DNA of 64,000 bases from a virus (taxonomy: Duplodnaviria > Heunggongvirae > Uroviricota > Caudoviricetes), in the IMG/VR virus record IMGVR_UViG_3300042456_000759; one strand, given 5' to 3'. Made by a program: the position numbers and the translations under genes. Numbering within the stretch: position 1 is the stretch's first letter; each line of letters opens with the position of its first letter. Shown here piece by piece: positions 16,440 through 17,032 of this stretch. The notes beneath the pieces were generated by a model, which was not told the origin of the DNA, did no database searches, and was given only the letters and a program-made list of their open reading frames with translations.

Positions 16440-16466
16440 AATTGTTTATTTTTTTGAGTTTTTGCG

Positions 16467-16527
16467 GTTTCTGTTTCGACCCTCAATTAGGTCATCATCA
16501 GCATAAACAATAGTTTATGGACAGAAA
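16467..16527 (-). ncRNA. hammerhead ribozyme-like motif, type III topology (copy A)
   Basis: Minus-strand RNA: UUUCUGUC^CAUAAA-CUAUUG-UUUAUG-CUGAUGA-U-GACC-UAAUUGAG-GGUC-GAAAC-AGAAA. Helix III is ACAGAAA/UUUCUGU, cleavage triplet GUC, helix I is a 6-bp hairpin, helix II is GACC/GGUC, and the CUGAUGA and GAAA cores are present. One extra U lies between the CUGAUGA core and helix II. Confidence 0.5.
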
Positions 16528-16933
16528 TTATAACAAATAATAGATAAAATCTTACATATAGTGTACATCTATATATAATACAAAAGATATTTATAAGCTT
16601 CTCACACTTACTTTTTCTTTTAATTACAATTGAGGTTGTAATTCGTACTTCTCTATTATTTGTTATAATAATATCTATAAGGAAGATATCAATACCACTG
16701 CTCTTGCTCGTAGTCTACAGCTTAACCACAAGCCCCTATCCTTTTTCCTAATCACTACATTTGGAAATACTTTCAGGTAATTTTTTTTAAATTTTACATT
16801 TTTTTAAATAGACCTATCTCGCTACCTCAAACTAAGGTAAGATAGTTCTAAAAGAGAAAGCAAAAGAAAACAATGTGCAGTGATACACTATTTTCTTTCT
16901 TTACTACAAAGGATGCCTCCTATAGTAGTGCTT

Positions 16934-16994
16934 TATACTGTTTCGACCTTTTGGGTCATCATCAGGCAGGATACATTCCCACGACAGTTTATAG
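16934..16994 (-). ncRNA. hammerhead ribozyme-like motif, type III topology (copy B)
   Basis: Minus-strand RNA: UAUAAACUGUC^GUGGGA-AUGUA-UCCUGC-CUGAUGA-U-GACC-CAAAA-GGUC-GAAAC-AGUAUA. Same core and same U insertion as copy A. Helix I and distal helix III differ by compensatory changes, and the helix II loop differs. Confidence 0.5.
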
Positions 16995-17032
16995 CTAGTT
17001 TACCAACTTGAAAGTTAAAACTCCTCCCTAAC

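Follow-up and report, generated by a model that had tools for sequence, protein, structure and literature searches.

What is the RNA that lies between two self-cleaving ribozymes of the same orientation in a stretch of phage DNA: a circle, a freely acting molecule, or the leader of the next message? Self-cleaving ribozymes are abundant in phages but almost none of them has an assigned role, and a concrete case is provided by a locus of IMG/VR record IMGVR_UViG_3300042456_000759, of which a 64-kb stretch was analyzed (hereafter the window, at its full length of 64,000 nt). The locus is read on the minus strand at 16440-17032; it is the gap between a gene of 133 amino acids (aa; 17033-17434, minus) and an 83-aa gene (16188-16439, minus), and it contains two complete type III hammerheads, named here HH1 and HH2. 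Our answer, which we regard as probable rather than firm, is that a distant crAss-like phage carries here, within its early leftward operon, an accessory non-coding cassette, and that HH1 and HH2 excise a stable RNA from the early transcript.

Two type III hammerheads and the RNA between them

HH1 occupies 16988-16937 on the minus strand and reads 5'-ACUGU C / GUGGGAAUGUAUCCUGC CUGAUGA U GACC-CAAAA-GGUC GAAA CAGU, where the slash marks the predicted cut between 16983 and 16982 (C17 being 16983). Its stem III is formed by 16988-16984 and 16941-16937, followed by the stem I hairpin (16982-16966; GUGGGA-AUGUA-UCCUGC), CUGAUGA (16965-16959), an extra U (16958), stem II (16957-16954/16948-16945) and GAAA (16944-16941), the two loops being AUGUA and CAAAA. 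HH2, on the same strand at 16527-16468, reads 5'-UUUCUGU C / CAUAAACUAUUGUUUAUG CUGAUGA U GACCU-AAUUGA-GGGUC GAAA CAGAAA and would be cut between 16520 and 16519 (C17 being 16520); it comprises stem III (16527-16521/16474-16468), the stem I hairpin (16519-16502; CAUAAAC-UAUU-GUUUAUG), CUGAUGA (16501-16495), the extra U (16494), stem II (16493-16489/16482-16478) and GAAA (16477-16474). Cleavage at both sites would release a fragment of 463 nt (16982..16520).

Both copies carry the type III core, with CUGAUGA...GAAA and a GUC ahead of the cut; the positions compared were C3 U4 G5 A6 N7 G8 A9, G12 A13 A14, the A15.1-U16.1 pair and H17 at the cleavage site. The sole departure from the textbook core, in HH1 and HH2 alike, is one additional U between A9 and G10.1. 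An extra nucleotide at this place is a documented natural and tolerated variation, and in chrysanthemum chlorotic mottle viroid (CChMVd) constructs the rate of trans-cleavage rose 3-4 fold with a U in this position (PMC3705267; PMC4209133). In both motifs, stems I and II are closed by loops and stem III is open, covariation supports the three helices, and the minimum-free-energy (MFE) fold of each motif alone is the three-way hammerhead junction. Stem I pairs in HH1 and in HH2 despite having no common sequence in the two copies. The pattern CTGATGA-N(6-34)-CGAAAC matches twice in the window, against a shuffle mean of 0.02, with two or more matches in 0 of 100 shuffles. Both motifs are thus apparently genuine hammerheads, predicted to self-cleave. 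The initial annotation, made from the sequence alone, had placed two hammerheads of the same orientation at these minus-strand positions, and canonical cores, MFE junction folds and covariance-model matches bear it out; its 463-nt fragment also holds, as the cut sites agree and the predicted ends are indeed a 5'-OH and a 2',3'-cyclic phosphate.

The two ribozymes belong to a widespread type III group, marked by the extra U after A9 and a location in the 5' untranslated region (UTR), that this analysis exposes. A pattern for their stem II and core occurs in more than 118 IMG/VR contigs, and the fetched viral loci (numbered with an L below) yielded 42 distinct type III hammerheads that share the extra U and whose helices covary. 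In an alignment of 26 of them, most of which had been chosen by a filter that itself required pairing, 84.9% of cells pair (34-50% when the partners are slid) and 16 of the 19 pairs show changes on both sides. The HH2-like subset, found via BLAST alone, still covaries in stem I (CAUAAAC/GUUUAUG, CAUAGAC/GUCUAUG, UAUGGAC/GUUCAUA and GUCAGAC/GUCUGGC). The covariance model built from the 26 viral hammerheads, R1, has exactly two matches in the window, HH2 at 76.9 bits and HH1, over 16934-16991, at 54.2 bits. At the gathering threshold, Rfam 15 reported no hammerhead in the window or in six homologous loci, and censuses of phage ribozymes may for this reason undercount the group.

HH1 and HH2 are members of different subfamilies rather than repeats of each other, and have in common only CUGAUGAUGACC and GGUCGAAACAG. 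The HH2 subfamily is defined by stem I ..AC-UAUU-GU.. and by loop II UAAUUGAG; these two loops are conserved in sequence, which hints at a tertiary contact of the kind that fast cleavage at low Mg2+ requires, and about 3 bp of complementarity can be seen by eye. Ten further viral loci among those fetched have this subfamily, over 57-62 nt and at 84-98% identity, and in at least eight of them the ribozyme lies 23-41 nt ahead of a start codon. Elsewhere, too, HH2-type ribozymes are followed by a similar A-rich leader (..UUUUAACUCAAAAAAA..) and usually preceded by a hairpin abutting stem III. The HH1 subfamily reads 'GGGAUGUGUAUCCC / GACCCAAAAGGGUC', and its other members stand about 35 nt before start codons with GGAGG sites.

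Some further observations were made on these relatives. HH2-type hammerheads were seen in L024, L031, L061, L069/L012, L070, L091, L092, L114 and L019; at most of the loci inspected, the U-run of the preceding hairpin doubles as the 5' strand of stem III, so that a terminator-like hairpin and a ribozyme are combined, and several loci have GGGTGGG repeats and a CATATAGCATTA motif upstream in common. In L058 (IMG/VR 3300036780_000230), eight hammerhead cores stand in tandem on one strand over 1858-5140, separated by gaps of 234-751 nt whose longest open reading frames (ORFs), of 64-214 aa, fill most of each gap. To judge from its sequence, L058 is an array of gene cassettes with ribozyme boundaries.

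The segment between HH1 and HH2 is of a different nature. It had been annotated as lacking any ORF, and this stands: only ORFs of 41-43 aa overlap it, none is conserved, and its homologs differ by indels of 1-2 nt that are not multiples of three and break the frame. It had also been described as less AT-rich than its neighbors, which is true of 16700-16999 (GC 0.33-0.36) and not of 16500-16700 (0.225-0.25). Three parts can be distinguished, all on the minus strand. A 5' module of 76 nt (16858..16933) forms a Y-shaped RNA, conserved in the window, L053, L073 and L029, in which an AAGC/GCUU closing stem holds an ACUAC-N17-GUAGU hairpin with an inner GGA(G/A)/UCC stem and a second long hairpin. 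The ACUAC hairpin, already pointed out in the initial annotation, does exist and is conserved, and its inner stem covaries; across the four lineages 99% of the cells of the module pair (37-53% when slid) and 5 pairs have changed on both sides. This module is absent from L136 and L141. It is followed by a variable A/U-rich spacer (16782..16857) with lineage-specific hairpins and no sequence conservation in the alignments, which could hold an internal terminator or promoter.

The third part is a conserved structured non-coding RNA (ncRNA) core of 254 nt (16528..16781; nhmmer placement 16781-16528). Its fold consists of three 5' hairpins and then of a 17-bp long-range stem that closes a three-hairpin junction and whose 3' strand abuts stem III of HH2. 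According to RNAalifold and pair counts, it contains 72 pairs, 17 of them with changes on both sides. Taken together with HH2, 97.2% of cells pair, as opposed to 41-49% when the partners are slid by 1-3 columns, and 23 pairs (17 in the ncRNA core, 6 in HH2) are changed on both sides, versus 1-3 when slid. The helices of the core contain 55 G-U cells and 3 A-C cells, and this excess assigns the structure to the minus-strand RNA rather than to the DNA or to the opposite transcript. The 463-nt fragment as a whole folds with a z of -5.4. The motifs, like the structure and strand of the RNA, are observed directly in the sequences compared, and the comparison lends strong support to the view that the bracketed segment is a functional RNA and not a spacer. 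The RNA resembles no known family in Rfam 15: neither the 254-nt core nor the 76-nt module has a relevant match at the gathering threshold or at E<=10, the six homologous loci likewise gave no relevant RNA family at the gathering threshold, and searches of the window, of the gap, of HH2 alone and of these six loci returned tRNAs and noise only.

Several smaller leads within the segment came to nothing. The motif CCTTTGTAGTAA had been reported to recur at 12556; the copy actually lies at 12562-12573 and does not exceed chance, since 15% of shuffles give two or more occurrences at no more than one mismatch. It is found in an ORF-poor 440-nt minus-strand gap (12380-12819) that also contains a GGTTGGTAG element (12460-12468). 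No antisense target of the conserved loop GAGAAGUACGAA was found within the window. AGGAGG-N6-UUG-UAG was rejected as a mini 'start-stop' ORF, as the homologs read GGAAGG, and a resemblance of the ACUAC/GUAGU hairpin or of UAAUUUCU to Cas12a repeats was too weak to claim.

A patchily distributed cassette present or absent among sister strains

Homologs of the RNA at 73-86% nucleotide identity occur in five other lineages: L053/L144, L073, L029, L136/L149 and L141. BLAST of the segment against the fetched loci gave full-length homologs in L053 (86%, a 109-kb contig), L073 (76%, a 108-kb contig) and L029 (73%). Pattern scans revealed L144, which is close to L053, as well as L136/L149 and L141, which have just the 3' ~300 nt plus HH2; the productive pattern was ACAANTANTAGAGAAGTANGAA, which added L136 from viral contigs and L141, L144 and L149 (the same contig as L136) from metagenome contigs. 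Pattern GAAAGTATTNCCNAATGTAG led to chance matches in coding sequence (L130-L134), and the 90 new loci found with TTGTTNTAATTTCTGTC included no genuine homolog. In all lineages the homology ends a few bases past HH2; its upstream end is at AAGCAC, except in L136 and L141, where it lies further in. On either side of the cassette, upstream of it and right after HH2, the sequences diverge, and the genes downstream vary between lineages. HH2 abuts the 17-bp stem directly in all six lineages that have the RNA, the window included, while an upstream hammerhead is found in three of them (window, L073 and L029); a covariance-model search showed L053, L136 and L141 to have HH2 only, and a gathering-threshold Rfam scan of these three loci detected no other ribozyme family in its place. 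Since HH2 is fused to the RNA in six of six lineages and HH2-type ribozymes also exist without the RNA, the RNA appears to depend on the ribozyme and not the reverse.

L053, L029, L136 and L141 are syntenic with the window, and the proteins that they share with it, including the terminase, are about 30-55% identical (tblastx segments). The RNA is better conserved than any neighboring protein, and a stretch of ~115 nt in its core is mostly identical in the window, L053 and L136. In L073, no protein similarity to the window was found within the 13 kb fetched. Conversely, closer relatives whose terminases are 65-78% identical (L170, L171, L173, L174, L176-L178, L180) have neither the RNA nor a hammerhead in the part of the early unit that was covered. 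In all, 12 relatives retrieved through their terminase lack both in the region covered, and so do five of the seven IMG/VR family members retrieved with a conserved 69-aa membrane protein, while the upstream 133-aa protein found nothing as an IMG/VR query. GenBank phage records (INPHARED) contained no homolog, in near or distant mode, and bacterial and archaeal assemblies, with one genome per species, gave only chance pattern matches that reached at most 12 bits with nhmmer over the pattern only, so that the RNA was not copied from a host RNA gene represented in that collection. Being present in distant phages and missing from closer relatives, the cassette can be described as accessory, rare, phage-borne and horizontally exchanged, and its patchiness is that of counter-defense genes.

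The locus also varies among strains that are ~98% identical, by the presence or absence of a 467-nt block (16471..16937, minus). The filled allele is carried by the window and L123-L126 and the empty allele by L127-L129, contigs that encode the exact flanking proteins. The flanks of the two alleles are ~98% identical and exactly 467 nt are missing, with a breakpoint that may lie anywhere within the 11-nt GGTCGAAACAG common to HH1 and HH2. Like the distribution, this indel and its breakpoint are read directly from the contigs. The empty allele retains a single hammerhead, recognized by R1 at 49.7 bits, in which the 5' flank, stem I and loop II of HH1 are joined to the 3' flank of HH2. It is a chimera, since an HH1-type body is thereby joined to the A-rich leader typical of HH2-type ribozymes. 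The empty allele is thus most likely a deletion by recombination between the two cores and not the ancestral state; that the filled allele arose when a mobile element inserted into a hammerhead already in place was judged less likely because of this chimeric structure, and the block shows no target-site duplication beyond the ribozyme core. Nor does the empty allele look like the product of RNA-level excision at the cleavage sites, which would carry stem I of HH2. The breakpoint in the ribozyme core suggests a route of cassette gain and loss, and the naturally filled and empty strains constitute a ready isogenic comparison. Elsewhere in these strains, L127 and L128 differ from L126 by two extra small genes (97 and 88 aa) ~1 kb further downstream, past the 69-aa gene, and both alleles occur with a 62-aa or a 56-aa variant of the neighboring gene. 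This mixing of genes and variants across alleles points to frequent recombination among the L127, L128 and L126 strains.

A proposed released RNA and its alternatives

We propose that HH1 and HH2 would fold and self-cleave as RNA polymerase reads through the locus, freeing a linear, highly structured RNA, of 463 nt if it is made as one transcript or of ~290 nt if the core starts in the spacer. HH2 would make the 3' end of this RNA (..UUAUAAUUUCUGUC>p) right after the 17-bp closing stem and without terminating transcription; with such a ribozyme, the RNA gene can sit within a polycistronic unit without a terminator. The downstream mRNA would have a 5'-OH and, at its start, the folded HH2 body, after which would come the conserved A-rich leader ~30 nt before the start codon, and HH1, where present, would trim the 5' side and remain attached as a 5' structure. 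A linear ncRNA together with a ribozyme-capped mRNA is favored because HH2 always accompanies the RNA and the upstream hammerhead does so in only three of six lineages. The released RNA would then most likely act in trans as a dispensable host-takeover or counter-defense factor, which would fit the patchy distribution, the location in the early region and the variable downstream genes, and the cassette would move between phages and be lost by recombination, for which the conserved ribozyme cores would supply the homology. Cleavage in vivo, the RNA ends, the action in trans and the role of the cores in recombination are what we infer from the comparisons above. The precisely processed regulatory or decoy RNA suggested in the initial annotation gains in plausibility from strong comparative evidence, as a conserved structured RNA is indeed there.

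Several points weigh against this proposal. Even with a 76-nt query, the Rfam 15 hammerhead models match neither motif at E<=10. The stem III of HH1 is short (5 bp plus 2), and HH1 may rarely be transcribed, as it lies 22 nt downstream of a terminator-like hairpin. The upstream ribozyme is missing in three of the six lineages, so that the 5' end of the RNA is not generally ribozyme-made, and the product may be one 463-nt RNA or two RNAs, since the spacer could contain a terminator or a start. The seven sequences given to RNAalifold amount to about five independent lineages only, and the control in which 0 of 500 shuffles reach the observed pairing values is not a probability. Part of the conservation could be owed to recent transfer and not to selection, although the compensatory changes argue for selection on structure. 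Finally, the natural deletion shows the RNA to be dispensable, and its action in trans is pure inference.

Among other explanations, we consider a purely cis-acting leader or insulator unlikely, if not to be neglected: the ribozymes would only separate cistrons and set mRNA ends, and the segment, never a free RNA, would be a long 5' leader that could include a promoter, an element for antitermination or stability, or a platform tuning HH2. HH2-type ribozymes are 5'-UTR elements in many phages, 23-41 nt before start codons and usually preceded by a hairpin that stands against stem III in the manner of the 17-bp stem, HH1-type relatives stand ~35 nt ahead of start codons with Shine-Dalgarno sites, hammerhead arrays at other loci merely flank small ORFs, and a processing role has already been proposed in the literature. 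However, the downstream genes differ by lineage, so that regulation specific to one gene is not conserved, no adjacent protein is as well conserved as the RNA, and 72 conserved pairs with invariant loops over 254 nt far exceed the simple hairpin of hammerhead-only loci. The idea, raised early on, of mRNA processing sites that separate early transcripts is likewise partly borne out by the position of HH2-type ribozymes before start codons in at least eight other loci. Rather less credit is due to a circular, retrozyme- or viroid-like RNA, in which the 463-nt RNA would be ligated by the host RtcB or by the reverse hammerhead reaction and may even propagate. As predicted from their sequence, two type III hammerheads of the same orientation would give suitable end chemistry, and this architecture typifies infectious circular RNAs (bioRxiv 10.1101/2024.05.16.594327); the RNA folds compactly (z = -5.4), and its 3' end (..CUGUC) together with the HH1 body would re-form a hammerhead, with a stem III of 4 contiguous bp in the window and of 7 bp in L073. 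An earlier objection based on a mismatched stem III at this cross junction was withdrawn, as the junction of L073 is a perfect 7 bp. Circular products of phage hammerhead clusters were also raised by Perreault et al., though none was detected (PMC3088659). Against a circle, L053, L136 and L141 keep the RNA with HH2 only, HH1 and HH2 share a core without being near-identical direct repeats, there is no target-site duplication apart from the ribozyme core, and the empty allele keeps stem I and loop II of HH1, as expected from DNA recombination within GGTCGAAACAG and not from excision at the cleavage sites; the 20 early minus-strand ORFs that were scanned yielded neither a ligase nor a reverse transcriptase domain. 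The circular reading of the initial annotation accordingly finds no specific support: the pair occurs in just three of six lineages, its members are of different subfamilies, and these 20 ORFs include neither enzyme.

A bolder combination, to which we give still lower standing, takes the cores as attC-like recombination sites, or portable cassette ends, through which unrelated phages would gain, exchange and lose cargo, non-coding here and coding elsewhere, with the 463-nt RNA circularized and acting as a decoy against host RNA-targeting or RNA-sensing defense; if this is true, retrozyme or viroid-like RNAs would have their first counterpart encoded by a phage. Far more improbable is an element acting at the DNA level (a replication origin, a packaging site or an array for protein binding, for instance) whose place between the ribozymes would be accidental. 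Inverted repeats abound in this AT-rich region, which lies ~2 kb from a divergent-transcription switch and the GC-skew minimum, and ~115 nt are mostly identical in three lineages, but the helices accept G-U and not A-C (55 versus 3 cells), which is the signature of an RNA from one strand, pairing is preserved by compensatory changes, and the block is missing from viable sister strains and close relatives. That the motifs are chance resemblances and no ribozymes at all can be all but dismissed, even though the Rfam models match neither: two pattern matches are found where 0.02 are expected per window, and the full core and all three helices are there, with covariation across 26-42 relatives. 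The released linear RNA thus remains the preferred explanation, and should it prove to be a decoy or a regulator, it would represent a new RNA class for the biology of crAss-like phages.

Genomic setting and related systems

The window belongs to a phage, as its terminase, portal and major head proteins match PHROGs; the terminase is ~27% identical to those of crAss-like phages of Bacteroides, Flavobacterium and Azobacteroides, and capsid proteins of its relatives match Pfam Crass_capsid weakly. Over 1-19 kb, genes are leftward, mostly small ORFs without a detectable family, together with four or five tRNA genes on the same strand; rightward structural genes begin at 19.2 kb, so that the ribozyme locus stands ~2 kb inside the leftward unit and ~2 kb from both the divergent-transcription switch and the GC-skew minimum. 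PHROGs and Pfam gave nothing informative for the flanking and early ORFs, and no RNA ligase or reverse transcriptase domain was present among the 20 early minus-strand ORFs scanned. On the upstream side, a consensus scan detected the terminator-like hairpin mentioned above (17019..17048, minus), a 12-bp stem followed by UUAACUUU that overlaps the stop codon of the 133-aa gene and may work as a terminator. An intergenic AGTTGGTAA motif follows (17000..17008, minus), 12 nt upstream of stem III of HH1. This type of element has three intergenic copies on the transcribed strand (17000-17008, 14980-14988 and 12460-12468), of the recurrent form ..TTCA(N)RGTTGGTARAC... The copy at 14980, AGGTTGGTAAACCTTTAAGCTTCCACTCTT, is nearly identical to elements in the hammerhead-bearing loci L024, L031 (11557) and L114 (7258), and it can fold into the hairpin AGGUU-GGUA-AACCU, followed by AAGCUUCC. 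The recurrent motif (AGTTGGTAA, GTTGGTAA) may be a promoter or a processing element. On the downstream side, the 83-aa gene has an A-rich 5' UTR (16440..16467, minus; ..AAAAACUCAAAAAAAUAAACAAUU-AUG), and leaders that resemble it follow HH2-type ribozymes in L024, L092, L114, L031, L136, L141 and L019.

Other features of the window and of its relatives were noted in passing. ARAGORN calls a minus-strand tRNA at 13983-14060 whose anticodon UUA would make it an ochre suppressor; it scores 41.9 bits with Rfam, its anticodon stem is poorly paired, and the large genes are intact in the standard code. At 5315-5404 (minus), a tRNA-like sequence found by Rfam only (42.6 bits), with no ARAGORN call, has a 33-nt insertion in the region of the anticodon arm and could represent an intron, a long arm or a degenerate tRNA. 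Among the terminase relatives, P0006, P0007, P0011 and P0067 are large terminases of 917-1115 aa with the homing-endonuclease or intein Pfam domains PF05204, PF14528 and PF14890; the terminase of the window is without an intein. Directly upstream of the terminase, L170 (9178-9492) and L171 (6760-7068) encode a protein with an Acb2_Tad1_hairpin domain, of the anti-CBASS/anti-Thoeris sponge family, in a rightward pre-terminase block that also includes SET-domain, DUF1573 and thioredoxin-like genes.

How does this locus relate to what has been described? The class of ribozyme, to which new members are added here, and its clustered arrangement as a habit of phages are already known. What appears to be new is a covarying ncRNA cargo terminated by a hammerhead and belonging to no Rfam family, its lateral exchange among crAss-like phages, and an indel breakpoint located in the ribozyme core; a literature search of incomplete coverage found no earlier description of hammerheads in crAss-like phages or of ribozyme-flanked phage ncRNAs. 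Perreault et al. (2011; PMC3088659) showed, in E. coli as well as in vitro, that clustered hammerheads cut phage polycistronic RNAs at other loci. These clusters and the window are alike in having at least two same-strand hammerheads in a phage transcription unit, and for the clusters spliced or circular products were considered and not detected. They bracket one or a few protein genes, as the L058 array does, whereas the cargo of the window is an ORF-free conserved structured RNA, and the pair of the window differs further in that both members are of type III, carry the extra U after A9 and go undetected by Rfam. RAGATH motif RNAs are also conserved structured ncRNAs that accompany self-cleaving ribozymes in mobile or phage contexts, with a function mostly unassigned (PMC11061315). 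In contrast to these, the RNA of the window, so far confined to one crAss-like phage group, is physically fused to the hammerhead that makes its predicted 3' end, so that a strongly covarying RNA of some 250-460 nt has a ribozyme attached at its 3' end. Rfam, to which the RNA was compared, presumably includes the RAGATH entries.

Retrozymes and viroid-like RNAs resemble the window by their paired, same-orientation type III hammerheads around a few hundred nt of folded non-coding sequence, and by 5'-OH and 2',3'-cyclic phosphate ends, which are those predicted for the fragment described here (PMC4918200; PMC7761336). Unlike them, the window is that of a DNA phage, with no long identical repeats or target-site duplication, a pair that is not conserved and no reverse transcriptase domain in the scanned ORFs, and its natural deletion occurred by DNA recombination, away from the cleavage sites. 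A comparable logic is that of the theta ribozymes, similar to that of hepatitis delta virus (HDV), found beside gut-phage tRNAs, where a small ribozyme fused to a phage RNA gene defines its end, as is proposed here (PMC10879173). Both settings include tRNA genes, those of the window being on the same strand as the ribozymes, but the ribozyme of the window is of another class, its cargo is something other than a tRNA, and nothing ties it to recoding. The same logic underlies synthetic devices, namely the RiboJ insulators, in which a 5' hammerhead standardizes the mRNA leader, and the ribozyme-guide RNA-ribozyme cassettes that excise an ncRNA from a read-through transcript; the window would be a natural counterpart of these constructs. 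Lastly, the promoter-stem-loop (PeSL) cassettes of T4-type phages are short conserved regulatory sequences that provide homology for the gain, loss and shuffling of genes, in a manner similar to that envisaged here. What sets the window apart from them is that a ribozyme's catalytic core serves as the repeated homology, and that only one deletion event is directly observed.

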